DNA from: Dehalococcoidales bacterium
Lineage (GTDB): Bacteria > Chloroflexota > Dehalococcoidia > Dehalococcoidales > UBA2162
Direction of reading: 5' to 3'
Assembly (NCBI GenBank): GCA_020354275.1
Contig: CP070645.1
Coordinates: 258,497 to 295,129 of the forward strand
DNA length: 36,633 nucleotides
Under the pieces are notes generated by a model. The model had not been told where the DNA came from. It ran no database searches and saw only the letters and a list, made by a program, of their open reading frames with translations. The translations under genes and the position numbers were made by a program. Below are positions 4,050 to 30,962 of the stretch, piece by piece (the first letter of the stretch is position 1; each line of letters opens with the position of its first letter).

Positions 4050-4145
4050 ACTTAGACAGATACTATTTTACTATAACTATACCACCCAAAGTACCATTGT
4101 AATCACTACTAAAGCTCCGTAAAATTTAGATTCAGGGGGATTAAT

Positions 4146-5750: not shown

Positions 5751-5770
5751 AAGGGAGAAGGGCAGAAATA

Positions 5771-7468: not shown

Positions 7469-7520
7469 TATCCCGGACAGGATACCCCCGCATAGAACAA
7501 CCTGACTCCCCGGAGAAAAG

Positions 7521-8729: not shown

Positions 8730-8756
8730 GCCAGCTTTATTAAAGCAGAAATAATT

Positions 8757-9709: not shown

Positions 9710-9835
9710 CCATAAGGGAGGGTGTTTAAAAAGCTGAGTCTATTGCCCAATTTCTCCGGCACGGAAATTGAAACAATCATACCAGATCCATTCCCCCACT
9801 GGGGAAAATATAGAACAGGTTTTAAACGGTAAAAA

Positions 9836-10405
9836 ATGAAATATAAAAGGATATTTACAAGCATTCCATTTATAATCGGTATTTTCATTGTCATTTACGC
9901 TGGCTTTGGGCTGGTATATTTCCAGAAGCATAATGAATGGCGTGATATAAATGCTCAAATTATTCCTACTCGAACTGCTCTGAGTAAACCTTCTGCCGAC
10001 CTGGGGCAACTGGAAAGCCAGCTCAGCCAGATTGAATTCCAGTTTGAACAGGCCTGGGCAACTCTTCCTGATGCGAACCAGGGAATTGATCTATATGACG
10101 CCCTAATAGAGGTGGCCCGTCAGAGCAATGTAGACGTTATTAGTGTAGTGGCTTCTTCACCGGCAGACGGTCACTATGGCGGAATAACATTTACCACATT
10201 ACCATACAATATCAATGTACAAGGCAGTGAAACTGGTATCCTTAACTTCGTCTCCAACCTGGCCGACGGCCCGGGGTTATTAGAAAGCTCTGAGGTCCAA
10301 AACCTAATTATTATTAATGGTGAATCAGACAATGTCACGGGTATTAGCTCCAGCCAGGCGAGTTTTCAACTGGTTATATACGCCCAACCCAGCCAATCAC
10401 TGTAA
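9836..10405 (+). CDS. PilO-like pilus assembly protein (N-terminal TM, coiled coil, C-terminal alpha/beta domain)
   Basis: The TM helix is IPFIIGIFIVIYAGFGLVYF. A coiled segment (LGQLESQLSQIEFQFEQAW) follows, then LPDANQGIDLYDALIEVARQSNVDVISV, which is typical of PilO. The call rests on architecture and position only. Confidence 0.5.
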   Translation: MKYKRIFTSIPFIIGIFIVIYAGFGLVYFQKHNEWRDINAQIIPTRTALSKPSADLGQLESQLSQIEFQFEQAWATLPDANQGIDLYDALIEVARQSNVDVISVVASSPADGHYGGITFTTLPYNINVQGSETGILNFVSNLADGPGLLESSEVQNLIIINGESDNVTGISSSQASFQLVIYAQPSQSL

Positions 10406-10442
10406 ATTATATATATCTCAAGCGATATAAGGGAGTATAAAA

Positions 10443-11879: not shown

Positions 11880-11933
11880 TCCGCCACGGTCATACCCATA
11901 AAAGATATATAAATTGTGAAAGGTAATTAAACA

Positions 11934-13028
11934 ATGGACATTATCGATATTCTACAACTGGCAGTGAAGAGAAATGCCTCTGATATTCAAATCCTGGCTT
12001 TTTGCGCCCCGGTAATGAGGGTTGACGGTAAGTTGGTAACACTGGACACCCTCCCCCTGACAGCCGAAGATGTCCGGCAGATATTCGATGAAATAACCAA
12101 TGATGAGCAGAAAGAGAGCTTCAAGCGTGAACAGGAGCTTGACTTTGGTTATAATTTCTCGGGAGGTATCCGCTTTAGGGTGAACGCCCACCGACAGAAG
12201 GGGACTATTGGTCTCTCCTTCCGTCTGGTCCACAATACTATTCCCACTATCGAGGATTTAGGGCTTCCACTAATATGTCAGGAACTGGTAACCAAACCCC
12301 ATGGTTTAATACTGGTTACCGGACCCACCGGGTGCGGCAAATCCACTACCATGGCGGCGATGATTGAATACCTTAATCACTACCTGCGCCGACGTGTGGT
12401 TACCATTGAAGACCCTATAGAGTACGAATATGCCAGTGACCAGTGTGTCATATCACAACGCGAAATTAACTTCGATACACACTCATTTACGGCAGCACTG
12501 AAACACGTGCTCCGCCAGGATCCCGATGTCATCCTGGTCGGTGAAATGCGGGACCTAGAGACGGCAGCGGCGGTACTGATGGTTGCGGAGACCGGCCACC
12601 TGGTGATATCTACCGGCCATGCTCCCAGCGCCCATTATTCCATAGAAAGAATCGTTGACCTCTTTCCCGCCCACCAGCAACAGTTGGCCCTGGGGCGGCT
12701 GGCCGCTGTCCTTCAGGGAGTGCTTTGCCAGAGGTTAATACCCAAAGCTGACGGCGCCGGACGGGTACCCGCGGTAGAGGTAATGCTGGCAACTCCGGCA
12801 GTGAGAAACCTCATCCGGGAGAACAAGACCTACCAGTTGCCTAATGTCATCCGTACCAGCTCGCAGAGCGGCATGCGCACCATGGACGAAGCATTATCGA
12901 CACTCTATCTCACCAAGCAGATTAGTAAAAAGGAACTTTTCGATAATTGCGCCGATGAAGAGGAAGTGGTCAGGATAATCGGTGAGCCAAGACGAGGTGT
13001 TGCCCTGCATAGAGCGGTATCATACTAG
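11934..13028 (+). CDS. pilT: type IV pilus retraction ATPase PilT
   Basis: It is 364 aa. Walker A is GPTGCGKST and Walker B is DPDVILVGEMRD. It has no T2SE_N extension. LIRENKTYQL is typical of PilT. Confidence 0.85.
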   Translation: MDIIDILQLAVKRNASDIQILAFCAPVMRVDGKLVTLDTLPLTAEDVRQIFDEITNDEQKESFKREQELDFGYNFSGGIRFRVNAHRQKGTIGLSFRLVHNTIPTIEDLGLPLICQELVTKPHGLILVTGPTGCGKSTTMAAMIEYLNHYLRRRVVTIEDPIEYEYASDQCVISQREINFDTHSFTAALKHVLRQDPDVILVGEMRDLETAAAVLMVAETGHLVISTGHAPSAHYSIERIVDLFPAHQQQLALGRLAAVLQGVLCQRLIPKADGAGRVPAVEVMLATPAVRNLIRENKTYQLPNVIRTSSQSGMRTMDEALSTLYLTKQISKKELFDNCADEEEVVRIIGEPRRGVALHRAVSY

Positions 13029-13123
13029 TCTCCTGACGGTTACTCCTAATACGCCACCAGAGCATACGTTTCTTCAAAAAGATCCTGTTATTCAGAGCTA
13101 ATAATATACACAACATAAAAAGA

Positions 13124-13158
13124 ACAGACACCTCTTTTCAAGGTGTCTGTCTTATTTT
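13124..13158. terminator. bidirectional intrinsic terminator between convergent pilT and the major pilin gene
   Basis: CAGACACCT (13125..13133) pairs with AGGTGTCTG (13141..13149) across a 7-nt loop. An A-run lies on the left and a T-run on the right. A separate perfect 20-nt palindrome, AGCTAAAGCCGGCTTTAGCT, sits at 13171..13190. Confidence 0.75.
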
Positions 13159-13212
13159 CCTGCTTGCTAAAGCTAAAGCCGGCTTTAGCTTAAACTGTAC
13201 ACAGGTACCAGA

Positions 13213-13656
13213 TTACGGTGCAGAATCAACTCCGATCTCATTATTGGATGTTCCGCTACCGCCACTTGTCCACCACCCGCGGCAGGTTCCGTCAGAATCA
13301 ACGCTATACCAGAACTCTGTTGTGTCCTTCTGCAGATAATGAGTATTACCAAACAGGCTAACATTATCTGAATTACTGGTGGTGGGGAAATAGGTCATGT
13401 CATTGTACGGAGATGTAGTAGTTGAGCAAGGGTTCGTGATTGACGTAATACCCAGGTCTGCCATCATCGCCGTCACCGCTGTCTGGATACTGTGCAGCTC
13501 GGTCAACCCTGACTCGTCTTTGCCCTGGCCCATGAACTTACTGACATTGGGTACCACCACTGCAGCCAGTACGCCTAGGATAGCAATTACCACCAGGAGC
13601 TCAATCAGGGTAAACCCCTTTTCGCCATAACGAAAGTGCTTCAGGAATTTTTTCAC
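13213..13656 (-). CDS. pilA: major type IV pilin (prepilin with N-terminal methylation motif)
   Basis: The leader is MKKFLKHFRYGEKG/FTLIELLVVIAILGVLAAVVVP. It is 147 aa. GGAGG lies upstream (reverse complement of 13664..13671). Confidence 0.85.
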   Translation of the reverse strand: MKKFLKHFRYGEKGFTLIELLVVIAILGVLAAVVVPNVSKFMGQGKDESGLTELHSIQTAVTAMMADLGITSITNPCSTTTSPYNDMTYFPTTSNSDNVSLFGNTHYLQKDTTEFWYSVDSDGTCRGWWTSGGSGTSNNEIGVDSAP

Positions 13657-13828
13657 GTTTCACCTCCTCTCGTGAATTGTTTCCAATGCTGATACTGGTG
13701 TTAACTTCACTGTCTCCATACTATCGTCCAGGCAGCCTAGAGTAAATAGCCTAAAGGTAATAACCGAGATAGGAAAATTATCCTATTGTATTGACGCAAC
13801 ATGTAGTCATACAGTATTTACAATAGTA

Positions 13829-14602
13829 ATGGATGGTATATTTAGTAATAGACTGGTTATGCTACCATTGTTTATCCTGCTGGGAGTAGTGGTAGGCAGT
13901 TTCCTCAATGTCTGTATTGATCGTCTGCCGGAGCGCCAATCGCTTTTCAGACCGCGTTCTCATTGCCCAGTGTGCCAGCACCGACTGGCTATTAGCGACC
14001 TGATCCCGCTCTTCAGCTATCTCTGGCTGCGAAGGCGTTGCCGTTATTGCGGGGCCCCTATACCCCAGCGCCTATTCTGGGTAGAACTGGTCACGGCACT
14101 ACTCTTTGCATTCTTATGGTGCAGTTACGGCCCCGGCGTCCAGCTAGGAATATTATTAGCTTATGGTTGCCTATTTATAGTTATTTTCGTTATTGACCTA
14201 GAACGGGGCCTCATTCTCAACAGGCTGGTGTATCCGGCCGCTCTGTTGACCCTAGCGCTGGTGCCACTCCGCCCTGAACTTACCATCGTCAACTCGTTAA
14301 TAGGAGGTGGAATCGGCCTGGCACTCCTACTCCTGCCGGTAATCGTCTTTCGTGGCGGAATTGGTTGGGGTGATGTTAAGATGGCCGGACTGATAGGCCT
14401 GGCAACCGGCTCGCCTGTTGTCTTCACTGCCATTATCAGCGCCATTATCGTCGGCGGGTTGATTGCCGGTATTCTACTCCTGCTGTCGGTGAAGAAACGC
14501 GGGGATACCATACCATTCGGGCCATTCTTGTGCTTGGGTGCTATGGCCGGGCTGCTGTGGGGGAGTACCATCTACGACTGGTATATTGGTCTATTCTCGT
14601 AG
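13829..14602 (+). CDS. pilD: prepilin peptidase (A24 family)
   Basis: The N-terminal zinc motif is CPVCQH...CRYCG. It is polytopic. The catalytic Asp motifs are GWGDVKMAGLIG and IPFGPFLCLG. Confidence 0.88.
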   Translation: MDGIFSNRLVMLPLFILLGVVVGSFLNVCIDRLPERQSLFRPRSHCPVCQHRLAISDLIPLFSYLWLRRRCRYCGAPIPQRLFWVELVTALLFAFLWCSYGPGVQLGILLAYGCLFIVIFVIDLERGLILNRLVYPAALLTLALVPLRPELTIVNSLIGGGIGLALLLLPVIVFRGGIGWGDVKMAGLIGLATGSPVVFTAIISAIIVGGLIAGILLLLSVKKRGDTIPFGPFLCLGAMAGLLWGSTIYDWYIGLFS

Positions 14603-14812: not shown

Positions 14813-16345
14813 TTACTCAACAGCACCTTCTATCACCAGTTGGACGACCTCCTCATCCGACATACCCAGTAGCTCTTTCAATATATATTCATTATGCTCG
14901 CCTAGCGTGGGGGCACTCTTTAACTGAGTTAATGACTTCGATAGCTTGAATGCCGTGCCCGCTGCCCGGTACTTCCCTATCTCCGGATGGTCAAGCTCCT
15001 CAAAGAGACCGCGATACTTCAATTGTGCGTCCTTGTCCATCAGGTCCTGCCCGGTCTCCAGAATACCGGCTGCCACACCGGCTTCCTGCATCCTGGTCAT
15101 TACCTCCTCGGCCGAGAAGTTGATTGTCCATTCCCCTATCAACCGGTCCATCTCCTCCTCGTTCTCCTGCCTAGACTTTAGTGTGCTGAACTTGGCATCC
15201 TTCGTCCATTCCGGATTACCGATTACACGGCAGAAACTCTGCCACTCTTCATCGGTCTGCACAACAATAGCACACCACCGATCCTCGGACTTGCAGGAAT
15301 AGGCTCCGTGCGGCATCGCTACAGCAGCCCTTTCGGCAAACTCAGCATCCTCGGCCAGCTCTACCTCGCCACGCTCAAGCCTTCGTACCGGCATATTAAA
15401 CCGCCTTAACATATTGGTAATTTCGCCAGGGGACCGTTCCATTGTCCATTCCTCCATCAGCATATCCAGCTCCGACTTGTTTGCCTTTCTCCCCTCAAGA
15501 GTGCTGAACCGCTCTTCCTGGACCCACTCGGTTTCACTCATCAACCAGCACATTATTTTCCATTCCTCGTCCGTAGCGACAGAAATACCACACCACCTGT
15601 TTTCGGAACGGCAACGATAGACGCCGTGTGGGGCAGCATAAGGAGAACTGTTACCAACCCTGGTGGCAACCCGCTGGTTGACCACATTGTCCAGTATTAG
15701 TGGGCTTAAGAAATGTATTGCGTTCTCATACTGCGATAAATCAAGGTACTGCCCCTTGCCGGTGCGGCGCCGGTAGTCCAGTGCCGCCAATATGGCCAGT
15801 ACACTAAAACGGGGCACTATATAGTCCGGATAAGGGCCATCCGGGGGTGAAGGCTCCTCACCAGGCCAGCCGGTTATATAATAAAAACCGGACAGAGCCG
15901 TCAGCTGGTACCCCGTCCCCGGATGATCGGCATGCGGCCCTGTCTGTCCCTGCATGCAGGCACTGAGCATGATAATGTCCGGCTTAACCTTCCTGAGATC
16001 CTCATAACCCAATCCCATCCTCTTCATTACACCCCCGGCATAGTTCTCAACGACAACATCAGCCCGGGAAACCAGCTTCTTAGCAATCTCTATCCCCTTG
16101 GGATCGGCCAGATTAAGGGCAATGCTCATTTTGCCGGCGTTGTACTGGTTGAAATCGCCACTACGGTCTACACCCGATTCGCCATCCTTATAAGGCCCGG
16201 TGGTTCGTTGGGGATCAACCCTGGTCCGGCCTTCGATACTGATAACCTCGGCGCCACAGGCAGCCAGCGTCTTGGTCGTCTGCGGCCCGGCAACATACCA
16301 GGTAAAACCAACGACCTTGATTCCCTCTAACGGTTTCTTCTCCAT
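14813..16345 (-). CDS. family III CoA-transferase (CaiB/BaiF) with internally duplicated small-domain segment
   Basis: The N-terminus LEGIKVVGFTWYVAGPQTTKTLAACGAEVISIE is typical of family III. At 510 aa it is ~100 aa longer than usual, because of a tandem repeat of an ~83-aa segment (aa 238..320 and 344..426). Confidence 0.85.
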   Translation of the reverse strand: MEKKPLEGIKVVGFTWYVAGPQTTKTLAACGAEVISIEGRTRVDPQRTTGPYKDGESGVDRSGDFNQYNAGKMSIALNLADPKGIEIAKKLVSRADVVVENYAGGVMKRMGLGYEDLRKVKPDIIMLSACMQGQTGPHADHPGTGYQLTALSGFYYITGWPGEEPSPPDGPYPDYIVPRFSVLAILAALDYRRRTGKGQYLDLSQYENAIHFLSPLILDNVVNQRVATRVGNSSPYAAPHGVYRCRSENRWCGISVATDEEWKIMCWLMSETEWVQEERFSTLEGRKANKSELDMLMEEWTMERSPGEITNMLRRFNMPVRRLERGEVELAEDAEFAERAAVAMPHGAYSCKSEDRWCAIVVQTDEEWQSFCRVIGNPEWTKDAKFSTLKSRQENEEEMDRLIGEWTINFSAEEVMTRMQEAGVAAGILETGQDLMDKDAQLKYRGLFEELDHPEIGKYRAAGTAFKLSKSLTQLKSAPTLGEHNEYILKELLGMSDEEVVQLVIEGAVE

Positions 16346-16377
16346 TCTCTCCCTCCTGATATCCCTTTCTTCCTTTT

Positions 16378-17682
16378 CTATATAACTCCAGCCTGCTTCA
16401 AAGACTGTATCTCTTCCGCAGACATGCCCAGCTCCTGCTGGTAAACCTCCTCGTTGTGCTCTCCGATAAGTGGTGCACGGCGCGATATCCCGGGAGGTGT
16501 CTCCGATGCCCAGGTAAATGCGCCGGGATAGGTGATGGTGGTGTCTAGCTCAGGGTGTTCCACTTCTGCCCAGAACCCCCTGGCAGCCAGCTGGGCACTC
16601 TCCAGAATAGCAGCGGTATTGTTCAGGGGATAAAGGGTAACCCGGTGTTTTACCGCCCCATCCATTAACTCAGCCATCGTGTGTGACATGAAGAACTTGC
16701 CTGTCGGCTCCTCCAGGGCTTCTCGCCTGGTCTGCAAGCGCTGCCTTCTCTCATCAGGGGTCTCTTCCAGTAATTCTTCAGGGGTCGGCGGGACGCCAAA
16801 TGCCTCCCAGTCAAATTCCCTCAGGAAGTCGTTAGCCATTCCCTCGCTGTCCATCCACTCTATAAGTGGCGGGTTCCGCCGCTTTCCCGCCTCGCCAGGG
16901 AAGAAGAACCACATGACAAAGCCGTCCTTACATGGCCACACCCGTTGCATCCTGGCAACTTCCCTGGTGGACTCCGGATCCTGCCTTGGTCTAATTGTTT
17001 GCCCATGGTCCCAGGAGGCAGTTAACATATATGTCGCCTGGGCCAGTGATGACTGAATGGAAAGGTCAACATGCTGCCCTTTACCACTCGATTGTTTCTC
17101 GAAAAGAGCCACCATAGCACCCACCGCAGCCTCAACAGAACCGTGCAGATATGCCTGAGCATGGTGGCTTATCTGCACCGGGGGGTGCTCGGGAGGGCCA
17201 ACCGAGTACATCTGGCCACCCATCCCCCAGGCTACAATATCAGGGGCTTTATAGCCCCGGTACGGCCCACTCTGGCCAAAGGGCGTAATCGATACCATGA
17301 TGACACCGGGATTGACCTTCTCCAGGTCAGCATACCCCAGACCAAGCCCATCCAGATAACCCGGCGCGAAAGACTCTATAACTATATCAGCGCCCTTAAC
17401 CAGCCTTTTCAATATCTCCCGCCCTTCAGCCTTTTCTATGTCCAGGGTGATACCCCGCTTGCTGGTGTTGAAAGCAAACCAGAAAAGGCTCTTCTCCGGG
17501 TCAACCTCATCATGATAGAAGGGGCCTATATTCCGGGTAGCGTCACCACCCGGCCTCTCAACCTTGATAACATCAGCCCCCAGATCACCCAGTAACTTGC
17601 CACACATAAGACCCTTCTCGTCGGTCAGGTCCAGTACCCGGTAGGGGCTCAGCATCCCCTCAATCCTCTCCTTTGTTGTCAT
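16378..17682 (-). CDS. family III CoA-transferase (CaiB/BaiF)
   Basis: The N-terminus is YRVLDLTDEKGLMCGKLLGDLGADVIKVERPGGD. It is 434 aa and sits 32 nt upstream of the previous CoA-transferase on the same strand. Confidence 0.85.
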   Translation of the reverse strand: MTTKERIEGMLSPYRVLDLTDEKGLMCGKLLGDLGADVIKVERPGGDATRNIGPFYHDEVDPEKSLFWFAFNTSKRGITLDIEKAEGREILKRLVKGADIVIESFAPGYLDGLGLGYADLEKVNPGVIMVSITPFGQSGPYRGYKAPDIVAWGMGGQMYSVGPPEHPPVQISHHAQAYLHGSVEAAVGAMVALFEKQSSGKGQHVDLSIQSSLAQATYMLTASWDHGQTIRPRQDPESTREVARMQRVWPCKDGFVMWFFFPGEAGKRRNPPLIEWMDSEGMANDFLREFDWEAFGVPPTPEELLEETPDERRQRLQTRREALEEPTGKFFMSHTMAELMDGAVKHRVTLYPLNNTAAILESAQLAARGFWAEVEHPELDTTITYPGAFTWASETPPGISRRAPLIGEHNEEVYQQELGMSAEEIQSLKQAGVI

Positions 17683-18190: not shown

Positions 18191-18913
18191 ATGACGACAA
18201 AAGTAAATAGAAATATAGTAAAAATCGACGAGGATAAATGTAACGGTTGCGGAGCCTGCATTATATCATGTGCCGAGGGGGCATTACAGGTAATTAACGG
18301 CAAGGCAAAGCTGATCAGTGATAAGTACTGTGACGGACTCGGTGCCTGTCTCGGTGAATGCCCTCACGGGGCCATCAGTATCGAGGAAAGGGCTAGTGAA
18401 GAATTTGACGTAGAAGCCGTCAGGCACCACCTTGAAGCAGCAGAACCAAGTAGCAGGGAACTACCCTGTAGTTGCCCTTCAACCACCGTAGAAAAAGAGA
18501 CGGCAAACCAGCCATCAATACCCGGCCAATGGCCGGTCCAACTCGCCCTGGTACCGCCAGAGGCACCCTTTCTTGAACAAGCGGACCTGCTGCTGGTAGC
18601 CGACTGCGTCCCCTTTGCTTATGGCAAATTCCACCACGACCTACTCAAAGACCATGCATTGCTGGTAGCCTGCCCCAAACTGGACGATTTCCAGACGCAC
18701 CTGCAAAAACTCACCGAGATCCTGCGCCATTCACCGGTAAAAAGCCTTACCGTGGCGCACATGGATGTACCCTGCTGCGCCGGGCTAACCCACATGGCCA
18801 GGCAAGCAATACACCTCAGCGGACGCGAAATCCCTCTCAGTGAAATTACTATCGGCATCAGGGGAGACATAAAAAGACCTGACGCCGGTTCAGTAAGTAA
18901 ATTGCCTGCATAA
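18191..18913 (+). CDS. 4Fe-4S dicluster domain protein with Cys-containing C-terminal domain
   Basis: Cluster motifs are CNGCGACIISCAEGA and CDGLGACLGECPHGA. The C-terminal domain contains ADCVPFAY, ACPKLDD and MDVPCCAGL. Confidence 0.7.
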   Translation: MTTKVNRNIVKIDEDKCNGCGACIISCAEGALQVINGKAKLISDKYCDGLGACLGECPHGAISIEERASEEFDVEAVRHHLEAAEPSSRELPCSCPSTTVEKETANQPSIPGQWPVQLALVPPEAPFLEQADLLLVADCVPFAYGKFHHDLLKDHALLVACPKLDDFQTHLQKLTEILRHSPVKSLTVAHMDVPCCAGLTHMARQAIHLSGREIPLSEITIGIRGDIKRPDAGSVSKLPA

Positions 18914-19054: not shown

Positions 19055-20230
19055 ATGAAACTGCTAATTGTTGGCTTTGGACAATGCGGGGGCCGGATTG
19101 CCGATGGTTTTGCCCGTCTAAACAAAAGATCACGGGGCCGCCGCGGACTGGAAATAATAACCGGTATCTATGCGGTAAACACGGACGCTGCTGATTTAAG
19201 CGGGTTATACAACATCAGGGCAGATTACCAGCACCGAATCCTCATCGGTGGTGACAAGACCAGGGGACACGGTGTCGCTAAAATGAGCGAGGCCGCGGCC
19301 GATATAGCCAGAGAAGACGGTGATAAAATCATCGATGCTATACGTACAACCAAGAGATTTTTTGAAACTGACGCATTTTTACTGATTGCCGGCGCTGCCG
19401 GCGGCACCGGTTCCGGTACGCTACCGGTAATGATACAGCGTATTAAAGAGCGTTACGTGGATAAACCCGTCTATGCCCTGGTTGTCCTGCCCTTTGAACA
19501 CGAGGAGGAAACAGAAGAAAGGACTATCTATAACACCGCGGTATGCCTGAAATCTGTTTATTCCGTAGCCGATGCCGTGTTTCTGACCGATAACCAGAGG
19601 TATGTCAAGAAAGACATCTCTCTGAGGAATAACATCGCCAAAATCAATGACATGATTATTGACCCATTCTACAACCTGCTCTGCGCCGGGGAAGAAAAAA
19701 AGGCAAAATATATCGGGACCAAGATGCTTGACGCCGGAGACATAATGCACACCCTTTCGGGGTGGACGGCATTCGGTTATGGCAAATCGCTCCTGCCACT
19801 GATTAACCTGCCCTTTGCCGTAACCCGGAACTTCCGTAAGAAGAGTAGTGAAACCCACAAGGGAATCCAGGCCATGGACCAGGCCATCAGCGAACTGTCG
19901 GTCCATTGCGACCCCAAGGACTCGGCCAGCGCATTGTATCTTTTAACTGCCCCTTCCAAAGAAATGAATGTAGAGCTGGTAAAGGAGCTTGGTGACTCCC
20001 TCCGTAGCATAGCCCCTGAAGCTATTATCAGGAATGGTGACTACCCCAGAGAGAGCGGTGAAATCAACGTGGTCGTTATACTGTCACGCCTTAACGAACT
20101 GGAAAAGGTGAAGCAATATTACATCAAGGCGTCCAGTGTGGTTGCCGAGATTGAAAGAAAACAGGAATCGATGGCCGATAAACCCAATGCCACCGAGGAA
20201 GTATCCAAGGACATCCCGACACTACTATAG
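19055..20230 (+). CDS. tubulin/FtsZ-superfamily GTPase, CetZ-like
   Basis: GGAGG precedes ATG 19055. The T1 loop is IVGFGQCGGRIA. The T4 signature GGTGSG (nt 19400..19417) is tubulin/CetZ style, not the FtsZ GGGTGTG. Other blocks that I recall from archaeal CetZ are AVNTDAADL, LIGGDKTRGHGV, PVYALVVLP, FLTDNQ, NGDYP and VVVILS. Confidence 0.75.
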   Translation: MKLLIVGFGQCGGRIADGFARLNKRSRGRRGLEIITGIYAVNTDAADLSGLYNIRADYQHRILIGGDKTRGHGVAKMSEAAADIAREDGDKIIDAIRTTKRFFETDAFLLIAGAAGGTGSGTLPVMIQRIKERYVDKPVYALVVLPFEHEEETEERTIYNTAVCLKSVYSVADAVFLTDNQRYVKKDISLRNNIAKINDMIIDPFYNLLCAGEEKKAKYIGTKMLDAGDIMHTLSGWTAFGYGKSLLPLINLPFAVTRNFRKKSSETHKGIQAMDQAISELSVHCDPKDSASALYLLTAPSKEMNVELVKELGDSLRSIAPEAIIRNGDYPRESGEINVVVILSRLNELEKVKQYYIKASSVVAEIERKQESMADKPNATEEVSKDIPTLL

Positions 20231-20310
20231 GGTTAAAGGTTAGCTATACCAAGATACCATTGAGAAGGATATTACCGCCGTAATAGAATAGTAAAACAAA
20301 CGAGTTACCG

Positions 20311-20643
20311 GTGATAAACAATATCATTAATTACCTTCAAAGAAGAAGAAAGACGAAGCTATACCGGCAGTGGGTACAGCAGAGTAGTTTATCTGCCGAT
20401 GATGTTCCCGATGAACTTGTAAGACGGGAAAGAGAGGGAGCCGATCAACCCTCAGATGAAGAATCTGATTTTTTATTTGAAGAGATGCCCCGGCAAAGAA
20501 TACCGGTCAACACAAGATGGCAGGTTTCATCCAGCGGTATATTTATACCTACCCGATATATCCTGCTGACCGGTTCTGCAATCCTGTTACTCCTGGTTAT
20601 TGTATCAGTACTCTCAACCGTCCTCATTATGCGGTCCTGCTAA
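20311..20643 (+). CDS. hypothetical protein with acidic middle region and C-terminal TM anchor
   Basis: It has a GTG start and no clear RBS. The C-terminal hydrophobic segment is ILLTGSAILLLLVIVSVLSTVLIM. I recognise no homology. Confidence 0.35.
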   Translation: MINNIINYLQRRRKTKLYRQWVQQSSLSADDVPDELVRREREGADQPSDEESDFLFEEMPRQRIPVNTRWQVSSSGIFIPTRYILLTGSAILLLLVIVSVLSTVLIMRSC

Positions 20644-21254
20644 CACACCAACCGGAACCCCCTGGCTATGGCGACCGGGTTTGCTATCTACTACGCATAC
20701 CGTCGCTGGAAACACATACCGCTGACCCACAGTACACCGGCACCAACCATAATATACCGCAACTAACAACCTTAGGCTTTTATGCCCACCTTCCCGTATC
20801 AGAAACCTGGTCTCTGTACTGCAGTGCATCTATTATTTTACATTCTGGCACCTTCTCTGATGCTACTAGAGGAGCTCACTAATCACAAAATACCAGGATG
20901 GTTTCAAATGCAGCACACTGCACGTTCTAGACGATTACATAATTATAAGCCCTTTTAAGTAAGGTGAAACCAAAACTGCGTCAGTTCGGCTTAGGTATTA
21001 ATACTTAGAAAACACGACTAATAATAGGTATTACTACGGAAGCCAGTTTAACGAAGAATGTAATAGTCTAATATGTAGGGAGGATTTATGCTGCTGTAAA
21101 AAAGCCAGGGTGGAGCGAGTTGCTGAAGTCAACCAAGCGTAGGAAAGAACCGACATAACGGTTTGCCAGCAGATAATTAAGCCAGACCAACAATAAAAAA
21201 TTAAGAGCCAACCAATAAAACAGTATTAAGAATATAGTTTCATGGAGGTACATT

Positions 21255-21440
21255 ATGGAATGGTGGGTGATTTTGCTTCTGGTACTGGCAGTGCCCGTAA
21301 TCCTTATCCCGGTGGGCTTGATCTGGTATATCAATGTCAGCGGTATCTATACGGTTATCCGGGAGACACAGAGGAGGCGTGCTGAGCACAGTAAAAGGGT
21401 CAGAGAAACGCAACTGGCTAGCAAACCAGTGCTGAAGTAA
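21255..21440 (+). CDS. small membrane protein (61 aa)
   Basis: GGAGG at 21244..21248 precedes ATG 21255. An N-terminal TM helix (WWVILLLVLAVPVILIPVGLIWYI) is followed by a basic tail. A terminator follows directly. Confidence 0.55.
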   Translation: MEWWVILLLVLAVPVILIPVGLIWYINVSGIYTVIRETQRRRAEHSKRVRETQLASKPVLK

Positions 21441-21465
21441 GGAGAAGTGAAAGGCTTCTCCTTTT
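21441..21465 (+). terminator. intrinsic terminator
   Basis: GGAGAAG (21441..21447) pairs with CTTCTCC (21455..21461) across a 7-nt loop. TTTT follows. Confidence 0.7.
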
Positions 21466-21565
21466 CACTGCGGACTTGCTGTGCCCAGATTTTGCTTTAG
21501 TACGCGCAAGCTCCAGAAACTATTTTTAGGTAGCAAATTCAGTATATTACAGGGAAGGAGGTTTG

Positions 21566-22135
21566 ATGGAAAGAAGAACACGAACAGATAGTTTTATAGA
21601 GGAAGTCAGTGCTATTCCGGGCGGAGAAGGTATCCGCCTTTGTATTCAATGCGGTACCTGCACGGCGTCCTGCCCCAATGCTGATAGCATGGACCACACT
21701 CCGTCGCAACTCATCGCCATGACACGGGCAGGAATGAAAGAAGAGGTTCTTTCCAGCAATGCCATGTGGCACTGTCTCTCCTGTTATCTCTGTACTGTAC
21801 GTTGCCCGAGGGGAATCAAGCAAACAGACCTTATGCATGCCTTTGAGTGTCTATCAGTGCGGGAAGGTTTGAGTCACGGCCGGACACTCACGCCGGCTAT
21901 GTACCGCAGTTTCAATGATTTCGTTTACAGCCTGGGAAGTCTCCCCGAAGCAGGATTTATAACCTGGTATTACCTGTTGACTAACCCGCTGCGTGCTATC
22001 AGGTTGTTGCCAATGGCATTGAGCTTGCGGAAGCGGGGACGCCTAACTATTAGAGCCAGAAGGCTAACCCCGGAGGGAACCAGACAACTCCGGGCTATCC
22101 TTGACAAAGCCGAAGAGCTAGGAGGTGTGAGTTGA
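21566..22135 (+). CDS. hdrC: heterodisulfide reductase subunit C-like protein
   Basis: GGAAGGAGG lies upstream. ATG 21566 is preferred, and an in-frame TTG at 21563 is also possible. Two 4Fe-4S motifs are CIQCGTCTASCP and CLSCYLCTVRCP. Confidence 0.85.
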   Translation: MERRTRTDSFIEEVSAIPGGEGIRLCIQCGTCTASCPNADSMDHTPSQLIAMTRAGMKEEVLSSNAMWHCLSCYLCTVRCPRGIKQTDLMHAFECLSVREGLSHGRTLTPAMYRSFNDFVYSLGSLPEAGFITWYYLLTNPLRAIRLLPMALSLRKRGRLTIRARRLTPEGTRQLRAILDKAEELGGVS

Positions 22136-23004
22136 GATATTATGCCTATTTCCCGGGTTGCTCCTCGTCTGAGGGGGGAGCCAAAGCATATGGTGTGTCA
22201 GCTCAGGCAGTTAGCAAAGCTCTGGGCATCGAGCTTCTTGAGCTGGATGACTGGAACTGCTGCGGCTCGACGCCCTATAGCTCATTTGAGGAACTGGCTT
22301 CCTTCTGCCTTTCGGCGCGGAACCTGGCTCTGGCAGAAAAGACGGGCTTAGATTTAGTGACGCCATGCAGCTCCTGCTATGTCATCTTGAACCGTGCTAA
22401 CTCTTACTTGAAGCAGTACCCTGACCTTAAGGCTAAAGTTGATGAATCTCTGGCAGCCGGGGGGCTGGAATACAAGGGGACCGTTCGGGTCAGGCACCTC
22501 CTCGATATCTTTGTCAACGACATCGGTTACGACACCATCAGCGCAACCGTAAAGAAGAGCCTTGAAGGATTGAAGGTGGCTCCCTACTATGGCTGTCAGC
22601 TGGTTCGACCCAGCTTCGGCTTTGATCACCCTGAAATGCCTGAGTCGATAGATAAACTAATAGTAAGTCTTGGGGGAGAGACTATCAACTTCCCCAAGAA
22701 AGCCCGTTGTTGCGGAGGGTCCCTGATTATCTCTGAAGAGGACCTTTCACTGAGTTTAATCGGCAAGGTTCTCAAATCTGCGCTGGATAATGGGGCAGAA
22801 TGCATAATTACCCCCTGTCCACTGTGCCAGACTAACCTGGATGCTTACCAGAAATCAGCTGACAAAAGGTTTATGACCAGCTTCAACCTTCCCGTCCTGT
22901 TTTTTACCCAGTTGATGGGAGTGGCTTTCGGGCTTGTTGAGAGAGACCTGGGCTTGAAAAGCTGCATTGTCCCGGCCGAAACGGTCTTAGGCAAGTACCT
23001 TTAA
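22132..23004 (+). CDS. hdrB: heterodisulfide reductase subunit B-like protein (two CCG domains)
   Basis: The TTG start overlaps the hdrC stop (TTGA). CCG-domain cysteines are FPGCS...NCCGS...PCSSC and YYGC...RCCGGS...PCPLC. Confidence 0.85.
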   Translation: MRYYAYFPGCSSSEGGAKAYGVSAQAVSKALGIELLELDDWNCCGSTPYSSFEELASFCLSARNLALAEKTGLDLVTPCSSCYVILNRANSYLKQYPDLKAKVDESLAAGGLEYKGTVRVRHLLDIFVNDIGYDTISATVKKSLEGLKVAPYYGCQLVRPSFGFDHPEMPESIDKLIVSLGGETINFPKKARCCGGSLIISEEDLSLSLIGKVLKSALDNGAECIITPCPLCQTNLDAYQKSADKRFMTSFNLPVLFFTQLMGVAFGLVERDLGLKSCIVPAETVLGKYL

Positions 23005-23014
23005 GGAGTAGAAA

Positions 23015-24976
23015 ATGGAGCATAAAATCGGCGTTTATGTCTGCCACTGCGGGGCTAATATTGCTGGTGTCGTCGATGTCGAGCAGGTAACTGAGTTTGC
23101 CCGGGGTTTGCCGTCAGTAGCTATAGCCCGCGATTACAAATTTGTGTGCTCGGACCCGGGCCAGGACATGATAAAGAATGATATCAAGGAACTGGGGCTT
23201 GATCGTGTGGTAGTAGCGTCATGTTCACCACGCTTACATGAACCCACCTTCAGACGCATGCTGGCCAGCGCCGGGCTCAACCCCTATTTCTTTGAGATGG
23301 CCAATATCCGCGAGCAGTGTTCCTGGGTAACCGAAGACAATGAGGCGGCTACGGACAAAGCCAAGGCAATGGTGAGCGCCTCAGTACGGCGTGTTTTCTA
23401 CCACGAGCCGCTGGAAACGAAGGAGGTTTCGGTCAACCCCTGTACTTTAGTCGTGGGAGCGGGTATCGCCGGGATACAAGCCGCACTGGAAATCGCCGAC
23501 TCGGGTAACAAGGTTTACCTGGTAGAGCGTGAACCTTCAATCGGCGGTAACATGGCCCGGCTGGACAAGACATTCCCTACATTAGACTGTTCGGCCTGAA
23601 TACTCACGCCGAAAATGGCCTCGGTGAGGTCACACGAAAACATCGAAATGATGACCTATAGCGAAGTAACGGATGTTTCCGGCTACGTGGGTAATTTTAA
23701 GGTCAAAATACGCAGGAAGCCGCGCTATGTGGATGAGAGTAAGTGCACCGGTTGCGGTACCTGCCAGGAAAAATGCCCGATAAAAGCGGGCAACGAATTT
23801 GATGTCGGTCTGGGTAAGAGGAAGGTCATCTACACTCCTTTTCCGCAGGCAGTACCCAATATGCCGGTAATTGACCGGGAGCACTGCACCTATTTCCTGA
23901 GGGGCAAATGCCGCGCCTGCGAAATGTTCTGTGAAGCCAAGGCGATCGATTTTGAGCAAACGGAAAGGATAGATGAGATAGACGTTGGTTGCATCATAGT
24001 CACTACCGGCTTTGATTCATTCGACCCCTCAGTGATGACTCAGTTTGGCTACGGTCAATATGACAATGTAATCTCCGGCATCCAGTTTGAGAGGATGAGC
24101 AATGCCTCGGGCCCAACAGGCGGTAAGCTTCTGCTTAAAGACGGGTCAACGCCACAGAGCGTGGCTATCCTGCACTGCATCGGCAGCCGCGATGTCAACT
24201 ATCACGAGTACTGCTCACGGGTCTGCTGCATGTACTCACTCAAGTTCTCCCACTTGGTCAGGGAGAAGATCCCGGATGCCGAGATTTATCAGCTCTATAT
24301 TGATATGCGTTGCTTCGGCAAAGGCTACGAGGAATTCTACGAGCGGCTTCAGGAAGAAGGGATCAACTTCGTGCGGGGGCGTGCCGGTGAGATTACCAAC
24401 ATTGCCGAGGAACCCGGGGAGGAAGGCAAGCTGGTGGTGCTCGTTGAAGATACGCTGGTGCGACGGAAGCGGCGCATTCCGGTTGACATGGTCGTGCTGA
24501 GTACGGCTCTGGAGCCACAGGCAGACGCCGGTGAGGTAGCCAGGCAATTCTCTATCAGCCGGAGCAAGGACGGCTTTTTTATGGAAAAACACCCCAAGCT
24601 CGACCCGGTAGCAACCACTACCGACGGCGTCTTCGTTGCCGGCTGCTGTCAGGGCCCGAAGGATATCCCCGATACCGTGGCTCAGGCGGCGGCGGCGGCG
24701 GCGAGAGTGCTGGCGATGATAAACAAGGGTAATGTGGAGATTGAGTCGGCAATAGCTGCTGTTGATAAGGAGTCCTGTTCCGGTTGCAAGACCTGTCTCA
24801 CACTCTGTTCTTACAATGCAATTTCCTTTACTGAGGAAATGAAGGTGGCGGTGATTAACGAGGCGCTGTGTAAAGGCTGCGGAACCTGTGCTGCGGCTTG
24901 CCCCAGCGGGGCGATTATCAGCCGGCATTTTACCACGCAGCAGATTATGACGCAGTTGGAAGGAGTGTTAGTATGA
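23015..24976 (+). CDS. hdrA: heterodisulfide reductase subunit A-like flavoprotein, with in-frame TGA (codon 195) read as selenocysteine
   Basis: ORFs 23015..23599 and 23615..24976 share a frame and are separated only by TGA 23597..23599. The sequence reads [24 protein letters not shown], where HdrA homologues have DCS-x-C-I-L-x-PKM. Other motifs are the N-terminal CHCGANIAG, the FAD motif [14 protein letters not shown] and several ferredoxin-type Cys motifs ([35 protein letters not shown]). Confidence 0.85.
23603..23628 (+). promoter_or_regulatory. candidate SECIS-like hairpin downstream of the hdrA UGA
   Basis: CTCAC..CCGA pairs with TCGG..TGAG (about 8 bp with a 2-nt bulge). The apical loop is AAAUGGCC. 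The hairpin starts 4 nt after the UGA. Confidence 0.4.
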
Positions 24977-25395
24977 GCTTTGAACCCAGGATAATCGGAT
25001 TTCTCTGTAACTGGTGCTCCTATGCCGGGGCTGACCTGGCTGGCACATCGCGGAAAAAATATGTCCCCAACGTGCGCGTGATAAGGGTAATGTGCAGTGG
25101 CCGGGTAGACCCCAGCTTCATCGTCAAGGCTTTCCAGCTGGGTGCGGATGGTGTTCTCGTCTGCGGCTGACATCCCGGCGAATGTCATTACCTGGAAGGT
25201 AATATGAAAGCAGCCCGACGGATACCTTTGATGAAAAAAATGCTGGCCCAGTTCGGGATTGAAGAGGAGCGGGTACGCCTGGACTGGGTATCGGCGTCAG
25301 AAGGAGACCGCTTTGCCCAACTGGTCAACGAAATGACGGAGGAAATCAGACGGCTGGGTCCTTTCAGCGGAAACGGAGGTAAGGCCGATGACTAA
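24973..25395 (+). CDS. mvhD: MvhD-like hydrogenase delta subunit, with in-frame TGA (codon 66) read as selenocysteine
   Basis: The ATG overlaps the hdrA stop (ATGA). The sequence reads [24 protein letters not shown]...[37 protein letters not shown]. Homologues read GC-HPG-x-CHY at that point. The same frame continues to TAA 25393..25395. Confidence 0.85.
25187..25203 (+). promoter_or_regulatory. candidate SECIS-like hairpin downstream of the mvhD UGA
   Basis: AUUACC pairs with GGUAAU (6 bp) around the loop UGGAA, 17 nt after the UGA. An alternative hairpin, UGACAU/AUGUCA at 25168..25187, includes the UGA itself. Confidence 0.4.
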
Positions 25396-26362
25396 ACCGA
25401 AGATAGCCCTGTACTGGGCGGCCGCATGCGGTGGCTGTGATGTCGCCGTGCTCGATACCAACGAGAAGATACTGGATATTGCCAATCTTGCCGACATTGT
25501 TTTCTGGCCGGTTGCCCTTGACTTCAAGTACCACCACGTTGAAGAAATGGCCGATACCTCCATTGACCTGTGCCTTTTTAATGGCGCGGTTAGAAATTCG
25601 GAGCAGGAAGAGATTGCCAGGCTATTACGCGCCAAATCAAAGGTAATGGTAGCCTTTGGCGCCTGTGCCTGTTTCGGCGGTATACCGGCGCTGGGCAACT
25701 TCACCACACGCGACGAGATATTCGAGCGCGTCTATATTGAGTCACCGTCAAGCGCCAATGAAAACCGTACTTTCCCCCAGACCCTGACCAAAGTTGAGGA
25801 AGGCGAATTAGATCTGCCGGAGATGTTCGATACCGTGATGACACTGGCACAGGTGGTAGATGTGGAATATTTTATCCCCGGCTGTCCGCCGCCGGTGGAT
25901 ATCATCCTCAAAGTAGTAGACCTGTTTGCTAGCGGACAACTACCTCCGGTGGGGGCGATAATTGCCTCGGATAAGACGCTGTGCGATGAGTGCGAACGGA
26001 CAAAGGAAGAGAAGAAGATAGCCAGGATTTATCGCCCCCACCAGATTATCCCCGACCCGAACAGGTGCCTGCTGGAGCAGGGAATAATCTGCTGCGGCCC
26101 GGCTACTAGAGGGGGCTGCGGCGTCCGGTGCGTTAAGGCCAACATGCCCTGCCGCGGCTGTTTCGGGCCGCCACCGGGGGTTATTGACCAGGGAGCCAAG
26201 CTGGTCAGTGCTATTGCTTCCATCTATCAGTCTGACGGACAGGAAGACATTAACAGAATGTTAGAAGATATAGTGGACCCAGCAGGAACATTTTACCGGT
26301 TTGGTATGGCTGATTCCATGCTCAAGAGGAAGAGTCTACCGCAGGGTGAAAGGAGGGCGTAG
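25388..26362 (+). CDS. mvhG: [NiFe] hydrogenase small subunit, MvhG-like (group 3c type)
   Basis: It overlaps the mvhD end by 8 nt. Motifs are KIALYWAAACGGCDVAVLD, GACACFGGIP and GCPP. The C-terminal Cys cluster is CCGPATRGGCGVRCVKANMPCRGC. Confidence 0.85.
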   Translation: MTKPKIALYWAAACGGCDVAVLDTNEKILDIANLADIVFWPVALDFKYHHVEEMADTSIDLCLFNGAVRNSEQEEIARLLRAKSKVMVAFGACACFGGIPALGNFTTRDEIFERVYIESPSSANENRTFPQTLTKVEEGELDLPEMFDTVMTLAQVVDVEYFIPGCPPPVDIILKVVDLFASGQLPPVGAIIASDKTLCDECERTKEEKKIARIYRPHQIIPDPNRCLLEQGIICCGPATRGGCGVRCVKANMPCRGCFGPPPGVIDQGAKLVSAIASIYQSDGQEDINRMLEDIVDPAGTFYRFGMADSMLKRKSLPQGERRA

Positions 26363-26367
26363 CCGCA

Positions 26368-27843
26368 ATGAAAAAGATTTCCGTCAATCCCATAACCAGG
26401 CTTGAAGGACACGGCAAGATAGAGATCTTCTTAGATGATAGCGGCGAGGTTGTCAATAGCTATCTTCAGATTCCCGAGCTTCGCGGTTTCGAGAAGTTCT
26501 GTGAGGGCAGGCCGGTTGAAGAGTTGCCCCGCATCGTCCCGCGAATCTGCGGCGTCTGACCGGGGGCACACCATCTGGCCTCGTGCAAGGCCACAGACGC
26601 CGTCTACCATACTGACCCTCCGCCTGCTGCTAAGAAGGTGCGGGAGTTGTTCTACTGTGCCCATATGGTCCACTCCCATATCGCCCACTTCTATGCCCTG
26701 GCCGCACCCGATTTCGTTCTGGGGCCCACCAGCGACCCCGCCGAAAGGAACATACTGGGGGTAGTGGCCAAGGTCGGGCTTGAAATCGGTGGTGAGGTGA
26801 TAAAACACCGTGCTTATGCCCAGGATATCCAGAACACTATCGGCGGTAAGGCCACTCATCCCGTCTTCGGCCTGCCCGGGGGAATCAGCAAGCCAGTCAC
26901 CGAAGAGGAGCGTAAAGGCTTTGAGGAAAAAGCCAGGTCAGAGGTTGAGTTCGCCAAATTCAGTCTGAAACTGTTCAATGACGTGGTGCTGGAGAACAAG
27001 GACTACCTGGCTCTGATAACCGGTGACATATATACCATGAAGAGCTATTATATGGGGCTTGTCGATAGCCAGAACAGGATTAACTTTTATGATGGCGATG
27101 TCCGTGTGGTTGACGAAGATGGGAAGGAGATTGTCAGGTTTAGTCCTGCTGAGTATCTGGACTATATCGCCGAGCATACTGAACCCTGGTCTTACCTCAA
27201 GTTCCCCTTCCTGAAAAAAACCGGCTGGAAGGGATTTATTGAGGGCAGGGAAAGCGGCATTTACCGGGTGAGCCCGCTGGCCCGTCTTAATGTTGCCGAT
27301 GGCATGGCCACTCCCCTGGCTCAAGCCGAATACGAGAAGATGTATCAAACACTGGGTGGTAAGCCTGTGCATGCCACCCTGGCTTTCCACTGGGCGAGGT
27401 TAATCGAGTTGTTGTACGCAGCCGAGCGTCTACTGGATCTCAGCCAGGACAAAGAAATAACCAGCCCGGAGGTCAGGACTATACCAACGGCCACACCAGA
27501 CGAGGGGGTCGGTATCGTTGAAGCACCACGGGGCACGCTTATCCACCACTACCAGACGGATAACAACGGCATTGTCCAGAAGGCCAACCTGATTGTCGCT
27601 ACCTGCCACAACTACCCGGCAATGAATATGTCGATCAAGAAAGTGGCTCAGGCAGCGATTAAAAAAGGGGAGGAAGTATCGGAGGGGTTGCTGAATATGG
27701 TGGAGATGGCATTCCGCGCCTACGACCCGTGCTTCGGCTGTGCTACCCATACCCTGCCCGGGCAGATGCCGATGGAAGTAACAATTTATGACAGTCAGGG
27801 AGAAGTCGTCAGGAGATTAAGCCAGAACCTGCCCGATAGATAG
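26368..27843 (+). CDS. mvhA: [NiFe] hydrogenase large subunit, MvhA-like, with in-frame TGA (codon 64) read as selenocysteine in the N-terminal metal-binding motif
   Basis: ORFs 26368..26559 and 26638..27843 share a frame, and the frame between them is open. The sequence reads RLEGHGKIEI...PRICGV-TGA-PGAHHLASCKA, against the family motif RxCGxCxxxH. The C-terminal motif is all-Cys, DPCFGCATH. Confidence 0.8.
26576..26593 (+). promoter_or_regulatory. candidate SECIS-like hairpin downstream of the mvhA UGA
   Basis: UGGCCU pairs perfectly with AGGCCA (6 bp) around the loop CGUGCA, which contains GU. The hairpin starts 17 nt after the UGA. Confidence 0.45.
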
Positions 27844-27875: not shown

Positions 27876-28334
27876 ATGAAGACACTGGTGCTGGGTCTGG
27901 GCAATCCGATTCTCAGTGATGACGGTGTGGGTATTCGCGTTGCCCAGGAACTAAAAGATAGTCTTGACCCGGCCGAGGTCACGGTGACGGAAGCCGGTGT
28001 GGCTGGTCTGGATTTTCTCGACCTGCTGACTCCTTATGACAAAGCTATTATTATTGATGCCATTCAAACCAGAGAAGGAAAGCCCGGTCAGGTTTACCGG
28101 CTCAAGCCTGAAGACTTCATGGCTACACAGCATGCCTGCTCACCCCATGACGTAAACTTCGCCACTGCCCTTGAGCTTGGGAGGAGATTGGGCATACTCT
28201 TACCCCAAGAGATAGTTGTCTTTGCTGTTGAAGTCGAAAACGTAACGACTTTTAACGAGAGATGTACACCCAAAGTAGCGCAGACGGTTCCTGTAGTGGT
28301 TGACATGGTAATGCGGGAACTGAACGGGGGATAA
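27876..28334 (+). CDS. hydrogenase maturation endopeptidase (HycI/HyaD/FrhD family)
   Basis: The N-terminus is MKTLVLGLGNPILSDDGVGIRVAQEL. An internal DAI...HD pattern is present. It is 152 aa and lies directly after the large subunit. Confidence 0.85.
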   Translation: MKTLVLGLGNPILSDDGVGIRVAQELKDSLDPAEVTVTEAGVAGLDFLDLLTPYDKAIIIDAIQTREGKPGQVYRLKPEDFMATQHACSPHDVNFATALELGRRLGILLPQEIVVFAVEVENVTTFNERCTPKVAQTVPVVVDMVMRELNGG

Positions 28335-30886: not shown

Positions 30887-30962
30887 TGGTGGAGCTGAGG
30901 GGACTCGAACCCCTGACTTCCTCCGTGCAAAGGAGGCGCTCTCCCAGCTGAGCTACAGCCCC
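30887..30962 (-). tRNA. tRNA-Ala (anticodon UGC) with encoded CCA
   Basis: The reverse complement is GGGGCTGTAGCTCAGCTGGGAGAGCGCCTCCTTTGCACGGAGGAAGTCAGGGGTTCGAGTCCCCTCAGCTCCACCA. It folds into a perfect 76-nt cloverleaf. The G3:U70 Ala identity pair is present. The anticodon loop is TTTGCAC. Confidence 0.95.

Follow-up and report, generated by a model that had tools for sequence, protein, structure and literature searches.

A putative selenocysteine codon at the Ni-Fe bridging position of a bacterial Group 3c hydrogenase large subunit

Introduction

Does a TGA codon in the Ni-binding motif near the N-terminus of a bacterial [NiFe] hydrogenase end the protein, or does it place selenocysteine (Sec, U) at a ligand of the active site? 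The question is raised by mvhA, the large subunit gene of an hdr-mvh operon in a 36,633-nt stretch of a Dehalococcoidales bacterium (contig CP070645.1 of assembly GCA_020354275.1, positions 258,497-295,129; hereafter the window). A single in-frame stop, TGA 26557-26559, occupies the codon of a residue known to be one of the two Cys ligands bridging Ni and Fe (Cys68 in D. gigas). We know of no characterised natural enzyme with Sec at a bridging ligand, and the structural and mechanistic knowledge of [NiFeSe] hydrogenases that we are aware of concerns Sec as a terminal Ni ligand throughout.

The equivalent residue in E. coli Hyd-1 is C79 (PMC8020662). An engineered C79U variant of that enzyme is active, retaining 13% of native activity as the best of four Sec variants, and the natural bridging-Sec cases are termed 'purported examples' in the same study (Evans et al. 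2021, PMC8020662). Such cases have been noted at the sequence level. Baltazar 2011, as cited in PMC13582414, is credited with natural N-terminal CXXU motifs in two sequences of Group 1 and one of Group 3, and Takano et al. 2026 described N-terminal motifs of the CXXU, UXXC or UXXU form in 47 sequences of Group 4, 27 of them CXXU; the 47 amount to approximately 0.2% of Group 4 sequences (PMC13582414). The relevant passage of a 2009 report refers to a 'selenocysteine-containing hydrogenase MvhA2DG' in Desulfobacterium autotrophicum HRM2 (PMC2702500), and in a selenoproteome review of 2026 MvhA/VhuA/VhuU appear only as UxxC (PMC13188914). In a search largely confined to papers outside subscription, we found no earlier description of widespread Group 3c CXXU or of its conserved selenocysteine insertion sequence (SECIS). 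The gene described here thus belongs to a known, barely documented N-terminal CXXU kind, the breadth of which in Group 3c seems to be unreported.

An in-frame TGA in the Ni-binding motif near the N-terminus

The mvhA reading frame starts at ATG 26368, with a Shine-Dalgarno sequence (AAGGAGG) upstream, and reading across its only in-frame stop yields a joined product of 491 residues ending at 27843. The translation around the codon is PRICGV(TGA)PGAHHLASCKA. A phmmer search against the PDB aligned this product end to end with MvhA (5ODC_F, E 3.5e-125), placing the TGA column at the second Cys of PRICGIC; the other top match was an F420-non-reducing hydrogenase (9SW2_F, E ~1e-125). Pfam PF00374 was matched with E 2.9e-35. 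The best NCBIfam model was VhuA, an archaeal model without the C-terminal part (VhuU). Since the score of 452 bits lies under the 800-bit equivalog cutoff, the protein is better regarded as a Mvh/Vhu-type relative than as an equivalog of Methanococcus VhuA. The nearest full-length database proteins are Dehalococcoidia/Chloroflexota entries named 'F420-non-reducing hydrogenase large subunit', at 80-84% identity. Judged by these best matches and by the gene context, mvhA is a Group 3c (Mvh/Vhu-type) [NiFe] large subunit.

The C-terminal Ni-binding motif, DPCFGCATH, is encoded with TGC and TGT at its Cys positions, and is followed by a 30-residue extension that is presumed to be cleaved off during maturation. 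The gene thus combines a candidate Sec codon at the second N-terminal Cys with an all-Cys C-terminus, the arrangement that defines the N-terminal CXXU type, whereas in canonical [NiFeSe] enzymes the UGA takes the place of the first C-terminal motif Cys, a Cys codon here. Group 4 membership is likewise contradicted by the best matches, which are Group 3c, and by neighbours that are Hdr and MvhDG subunits rather than membrane antiporter-like subunits. The original prediction, made from the nucleotide letters, had proposed a frame open across the TGA, the second Cys of RxCGxCxxxH as its site and an all-Cys C-terminal motif; the joined reading frame, the alignment with 5ODC_F and the C-terminal codons bear out all three.

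The public gene call for this locus (P0120, 26650-27843) gives a protein of 398 residues that begins at an internal Met (MFYCAHM...) and has lost 93 residues at the N-terminus, the Ni-binding motif among them. As calls of this type drop the N-terminus, the hydrogenase is under-reported by automated annotation.

TGA and Cys codons alternate across phyla

Orthologues were collected in two scans, both of which are non-random samples. The first, of genomes with one representative per species, used the pattern R-I-C-G-[VI]-TGA-x-x-x-H-H and so selects TGA forms only. It yielded at least 119 loci, at least 106 of which are true mvhA orthologues with TGA in exactly the same column; 13 of the matches listed were unrelated, against approximately 26 random matches expected by our own estimate. 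The second, of metagenomes, used the motif RICG[VI]xPGAHH with TGA, TGC or TGT allowed before PGAHH. It yielded at least 120 contigs, and all those listed are true orthologues, 58 with TGA, 43 with TGC and 19 with TGT; the column is therefore occupied by both forms (58 TGA and 62 TGC/TGT). Every complete Sec-type orthologue among the matches listed carries a DPCxxC C-terminal motif.

Among the matches listed, TGA-type carriers span about a dozen bacterial phyla. They include Dehalococcoidia, Anaerolineales, Krumholzibacteriota, Nitrospirota/Thermodesulfovibrio, Acidobacteriota, Syntrophaceae/Thermodesulfobacteriota, Zixibacteria, Coatesbacteria, KSB1, Latescibacteria, Cloacimonas and Bacillota of the Desulforudis/Desulfotomaculia type. 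Some carriers are in culture, among them Desulforudis sp. Tu-874, Desulfotruncus alcoholivorax DSM 16058 and Desulfoscipio geothermicus DSM 3669. The window gene falls inside a clade of 23 tips, all TGA, in a neighbour-joining tree of 203 proteins. Across the whole tree at least 16 Sec/Cys switches are needed, compared with approximately 66 when the states are shuffled.

A sequencing or assembly error, with TGC or TGT as the real codon, would require a change of one base, and all 118 full-length close protein homologues (118/118) have Cys at this column, although the truncation of TGA forms by gene callers biases that sample. On the other side, TGA stands at this column in at least 164 independent contigs from different projects, including the closest relative among the matches listed (L161, 93.7% amino-acid identity), and it is coupled to a hairpin-specific synonymous constraint, described below, that Cys-type genes lack. 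Because the TGA recurs across independent contigs and throughout a related clade, we regard both an assembly error and a lineage-specific pseudogene as excluded for practical purposes, and the probability that the codon was misread is negligible.

Constraint on the hairpin downstream of the TGA

The TGA of mvhA is followed by a hairpin, UGGCCU-CGUGCA-AGGCCA, with a 6-bp stem, a 6-nt loop and G at loop position 2. The hairpin opens at the 17th nucleotide past the TGA, and the UGA-to-loop distance is 22 nt. This spacing and the loop G fit the bacterial SECIS consensus. The conserved apical-loop G of bacterial SECIS elements is restated in PMC13582414.

We compared 88 unique TGA-type sequences (PGAHH) with 61 Cys-type sequences that share the same amino-acid context, numbering the U of the TGA as 1, so that the pairs are 20-37, 21-36, 22-35, 23-34, 24-33 and 25-32. 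The six pairs form in 99-100% of TGA-type sequences, while in the Cys-type set pairing falls to 61% at 21-36 and to 54% at 24-33. At synonymous positions within the element, TGA-type genes are nearly invariant where Cys-type genes vary (Table 1). The wobble sites that flank the hairpin are saturated in TGA-type and Cys-type sequences alike (1.7-2.0 bits), which shows the constraint to be local and tied to the TGA. The comparison thus shows that selection on the hairpin is specific to UGA-containing genes.

Table 1. Nucleotide frequencies at synonymous positions of the hairpin (U of TGA = 1)
Position	TGA-type	Cys-type
24	C 0.99	C 0.33, T 0.26, A 0.23, G 0.18
27 (loop)	G 1.00	G 0.36, C 0.36
33	G 0.99	G 0.69, A 0.31
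36	C 0.97	C 0.36, T 0.28, A 0.21, G 0.15

Shared ancestry was considered as a cause of the hairpin conservation and rejected, given that the adjoining wobble sites of the very same sequences are saturated (1.7-2.0 bits).

The hairpin is kept in all Sec lineages, through compensatory or register-shifted variants, and loop position 2 is always G. Compensatory changes include U-A at 24-33 (L070, L078) and A-U at 21-36 (L104, L229). In an alignment of 127 distinct sequences, pairing holds for 94.1% of cells, and double changes occur in three of the six pairs. None of 500 shuffles matched the observed percentage paired or the covariation score, and 3/500 matched the three double-change pairs. Hairpins in a shifted register or with a different stem were also observed, in L027, L040 and L095 (Zixibacteria/Coatesbacteria type) and in L004, L008 and L049 (Nitrospirota); examples of such variants are CUUCGC-AGGU-GCGAAG and GGCGUC-AGUUAA-GGCGCU.

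The codon in the loop (nucleotides 28-30) specifies Cys or Gly in Sec-type sequences, with G29 in 100%, and mostly Thr in the Cys-type, giving the contexts ASCKA or ASGKA as opposed to ASTKA. The RNA element thus has a hand in shaping the protein sequence.

Protein-level selection beyond the TGA

Downstream of the TGA, the mean entropy in TGA-type sequences is 1.2-1.4 bits at third positions and 0.2-0.5 bits at first and second positions. Such periodicity indicates that the stretch is translated, and that the part which a restart at or beyond 26638 would skip is under protein-level selection.

These data bear directly on the possibility that the TGA is a genuine stop, leaving either a pseudogene or a 63-residue peptide together with a product of approximately 400 residues restarted downstream. 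Gene callers do truncate the gene in this manner (as in P0120), and GTG 26638, TTG 26647 and ATG 26665 are available in frame. However, no Shine-Dalgarno sequence was found upstream of any of these three starts, no separate start site is seen past the TGA in the orthologues, and a restart would forfeit the motif His and approximately 27 conserved residues. In more than 150 TGA-type sequences the codons of the skipped residues vary at third positions while selection acts at the amino-acid level, and both the TGA column and the hairpin are conserved across phyla. We therefore regard termination at this codon as very unlikely.

Global reassignment of UGA was also considered. It was rejected on the grounds that 7/32 window genes terminate with TGA as a normal stop.

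Two further TGA codons in the operon

Two neighbours of mvhA carry an in-frame TGA at a Cys column as well: hdrA, in the context DCSA[U]ILTPK, and mvhD, in the context VCG[U]HPGECH. In mvhD the column corresponds to the Cys of GCHxGDCHY in MvhD chains 8RVU_F, 8RVV_F and 9SW2_D. A hairpin follows the TGA in mvhD (AUUACCU-GGA-AGGUAAU) and likewise in hdrA. TGA-type orthologues of both genes lose synonymous variation at approximately positions 18-36 after the codon, whereas Cys-type orthologues keep it; at hdrA position 27, for example, the entropy is 0.0 bits in the TGA-type and 1.8 bits in the Cys-type. These two codons are putative second and third Sec codons of the operon. The HdrA and MvhD families are experimentally verified selenoproteins, HdrA with a CxxU motif (PMC13188914).

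Among the matches listed, TGA-type mvhD stands beside TGA-type mvhA at 47/104 loci, compared with 5/43 beside Cys-type mvhA; the corresponding figures for TGA-type hdrA are 25/48 and 2/19. At the other 57 of the 104 listed TGA-type mvhA loci with a detectable mvhD motif, the mvhD motifs are exclusively of the Cys-type, so the bridging site of mvhA is often the sole putative Sec seen in the two subunits.

Genomic surroundings

The operon reads hdrC-hdrB-hdrA-mvhD-mvhG-mvhA-hycI on the forward strand (Table 2). The top NCBIfam model for the hdrC-like product is CoB_CoM_SS_C, and the hdrB-like product matches HdrB and SdhE-like models, all under the respective cutoffs.

Table 2. Features of the hdr-mvh operon and of mvhA
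Feature	Coordinates	Strand	Basis
hdrC-like 4Fe-4S dicluster subunit, first gene of the operon	21563-22135	+	Pfam Fer4_8/Fer4_17
hdrB-like subunit with CCG domains	22132-23004	+	Pfam CCG, E 6e-29
hdrA, flavin adenine dinucleotide/FeS subunit, in-frame TGA 23597-23599	23015-24976	+	
mvhD, [2Fe-2S] subunit, in-frame TGA 25168-25170	24973-25395	+	Pfam FlpD, E 8e-57
mvhG, hydrogenase small subunit	25388-26362	+	Pfam Oxidored_q6; top NCBIfam VhuG
mvhA, Group 3c [NiFe(Se)] large subunit, 491 residues including one putative Sec	26368-27843	+	Pfam NiFeSe_Hases
N-terminal Ni-binding motif R-I-C-G-V-U-P-G-A-H	26542-26571	+	
UGA codon, putative Sec at the Ni-Fe bridging Cys column	26557-26559	+	
Predicted SECIS hairpin, stem 26576-26581 / 26588-26593, loop 26582-26587	26576-26593	+	folding and comparison
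C-terminal Ni-binding motif DPCFGCATH, all Cys	27724-27750	+	
HycI-type hydrogenase maturation endopeptidase	27876-28334	+	Pfam HycI, E 2e-19

Upstream of hdrC lies a region of approximately 1.3 kb (20240-21560) with only short overlapping reading frames and a lower G+C content (0.457 over 20001-22000), which may serve the operon as a regulatory or promoter region. It is preceded by a gene for a tubulin/FtsZ-family protein (19055-20230, forward strand) that matches the CetZ C-terminal domain (PF21011, E 5e-14), in an otherwise bacterial-looking genome of the Dehalococcoidia type; we take CetZ to be an archaeal family. An archaeal origin, considered on account of this gene, was rejected: homologues bear Dehalococcoidia/Chloroflexota names, the window holds bacterial genes of the type IV pilus, DivIVA and LuxR kinds, and the SECIS hairpin sits within the reading frame. 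Elsewhere in the window, 3216-14602 holds two genes for DivIVA-domain proteins and then a type IV pilus cluster (a PilB-like ATPase, PilC, pilins with N-methylation motifs, a PilM/PilN fusion, a PilT-like ATPase and a prepilin peptidase), and LuxR-type genes are also found. Two adjoining family III CoA-transferase genes (510 and 434 residues) occupy 14813-17682 on the reverse strand, followed by a ferredoxin-like gene at 18191-18913 on the forward strand. The sole RNA gene detected in the window is a tRNA-Ala(UGC) at 30887-30962 on the reverse strand.

Discussion

We consider it very probable that UGA 26557-26559 of mvhA is recoded to Sec, with SelB and Sec-tRNA(Sec) binding the hairpin inside the reading frame and Sec entering at the bridging-ligand position. 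In such a mechanism, SelB-GTP-Sec-tRNA(Sec) would bind during translation to the hairpin that lies 16 nt downstream of the UGA, and Sec would replace the second Cys of RxCGxCxxxH. After insertion of the Ni-Fe(CO)(CN)2 centre, the neighbouring HycI-type protease would clip the C-terminal extension, and the selenolate would bridge Ni and Fe (Ni-(mu-Se)-Fe), the remaining ligands all being Cys. MvhA would then serve as catalytic subunit in an MvhAGD hydrogenase, encoded together with HdrABC and forming the H2-oxidising module of a complex that is presumably flavin-based and electron-bifurcating, and in which HdrA and MvhD would bear Sec too.

The original prediction had gone beyond the motif, describing a perfect 6-bp hairpin after the TGA, the same TGA-at-Cys pattern in two neighbouring genes, and a stop as improbable. 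The hairpin and both neighbouring codons were found as described. The argument against a stop gained from the skipped residues, which vary at third positions under amino-acid-level selection in TGA-type genes, and the Sec interpretation from orthologue conservation, SECIS-specific synonymous constraint and codon periodicity. The prediction had further placed Sec at a ligand different from that of known [NiFeSe] enzymes. This holds for the characterised enzymes and fails as a general statement, natural N-terminal CXXU sequences having been reported earlier.

Several observations weigh against recoding to Sec. The folding energy of the hairpin is no better than that of shuffled sequences (z = +0.37 to +0.86), and its significance is for this reason drawn from the comparative data. 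Rfam at its gathering threshold returned no SECIS family in the window, only the tRNA-Ala, and neither selA, selB, selC and selD nor a gene for tRNA-Sec was found within the 36.6 kb. Indirect support for Sec machinery in the genome comes from the other two putative Sec genes of the operon. The evidence for Sec is, moreover, sequence data throughout, and SelB- and SECIS-dependent insertion of Cys at UGA by a tRNA of the tRNA-ReC type would leave the same signature.

That last scenario, in which the product would be an ordinary all-Cys [NiFe] enzyme, shares every step with Sec insertion except the residue delivered, and the conserved codon and hairpin speak to recoding rather than to the identity of that residue. 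The same limitation is stated for the Group 4 sequences, and tRNA-ReC is found in some genomes with N-terminal Sec motifs (PMC13582414). We nonetheless consider Cys recoding unlikely. TGA and TGC/TGT switch often between close relatives (at least 16 times over the 203 tips), a typical Sec/Cys pattern; the classical Sec sites of HdrA and MvhD, both verified families (PMC13188914), are TGA in this operon as well; and encoding Cys by UGA offers no obvious gain over TGC. Selenium rather than sulfur is the probable outcome at this site of mvhA.

Among known systems, the closest likenesses are the isolated sequences noted earlier. The Baltazar cases, in the description given by the citing paper, share Sec at the second N-terminal Cys, where it is predicted to bridge Ni and Fe. 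Together with MvhA2DG of strain HRM2, to the extent that the cited passages describe them, they are bacterial, cytoplasmic, Mvh-type and predicted to contain Sec, with the gene clustered with Sec-containing HdrA and MvhD. These are isolated sequence observations in the passages concerned, whereas the genes compared here form a large, SECIS-supported clade across many phyla. The Group 4 sequences also have a SECIS inside the reading frame with G at apical-loop position 1 or 2, a mosaic of Sec and Cys forms, truncation at the UGA by gene callers and some members from Chloroflexota (PMC13582414). They are membrane-bound, energy-converting and rare, while mvhA encodes a soluble Group 3c subunit in an Hdr operon. 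Of the PGAHH-clade metagenome contigs among the matches listed, about half are of the TGA form, compared with approximately 0.2% in Group 4.

The canonical [NiFeSe] enzymes (Desulfomicrobium baculatum 1CC1, Desulfovibrio vulgaris HysAB, Methanococcus Vhu/Fru) likewise have one UGA-encoded Sec ligand, and Vhu is itself Group 3c with HdrABC and VhuD as partners. In these, however, Sec comes first in the C-terminal DPUxxC, as a terminal Ni ligand beside the proton-relay Glu. In mvhA this position reads DPCFGC, and the candidate Sec codon lies at the N-terminal bridging ligand. Archaeal SECIS elements are located in untranslated regions, whereas the element of mvhA lies inside the reading frame. 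The methanogen MvhAGD-HdrABC complex (5ODC) has the same subunit set and gene neighbourhood, and its MvhA and MvhD align nearly full length with the proteins encoded here; the solved complexes of this type have Cys at the TGA column, and the present host is a bacterium, not a methanogen. As for Hyd-1 C79U, Sec is at the equivalent ligand, the second N-terminal Cys, and the site tolerates selenium while staying active. That variant is artificial, made by UAG suppression in an O2-tolerant Group 1 enzyme, and its 13% of native activity came with no gain in O2 tolerance, so it is no guide to the natural selection of Sec in Group 3c.

More broadly, it is possible, and we put this forward tentatively, that, among bacterial Group 3c (Mvh-type) hydrogenases, bridging-ligand CXXU enzymes constitute a major natural class with their own conserved SECIS inside the reading frame, which dictates the Cys or Gly codon of the loop. 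If so, reviews that place the Sec of Groups 1 and 3 at the C-terminal UXXC miss what would be the commonest bacterial cytoplasmic [NiFeSe] hydrogenase, and a mu-selenolate Ni-Se-Fe core would be a widespread, uncharacterised catalytic site. Truncated gene calls mean that the Mvh hydrogenase may score as broken in metabolic reconstructions of Dehalococcoidia, Krumholzibacteriota, Acidobacteriota and further groups. The repeated switching between Sec and Cys, with roughly half of the listed clade on either side, shows the substitution to have real fitness consequences for H2-cycling anaerobes. The cultured carriers make the question open to experiment, and an enzyme with a natural Se bridge between Ni and Fe would put to the test the chalcogen's influence on the bimetallic core, in hydride binding, catalytic bias and sensitivity to O2.

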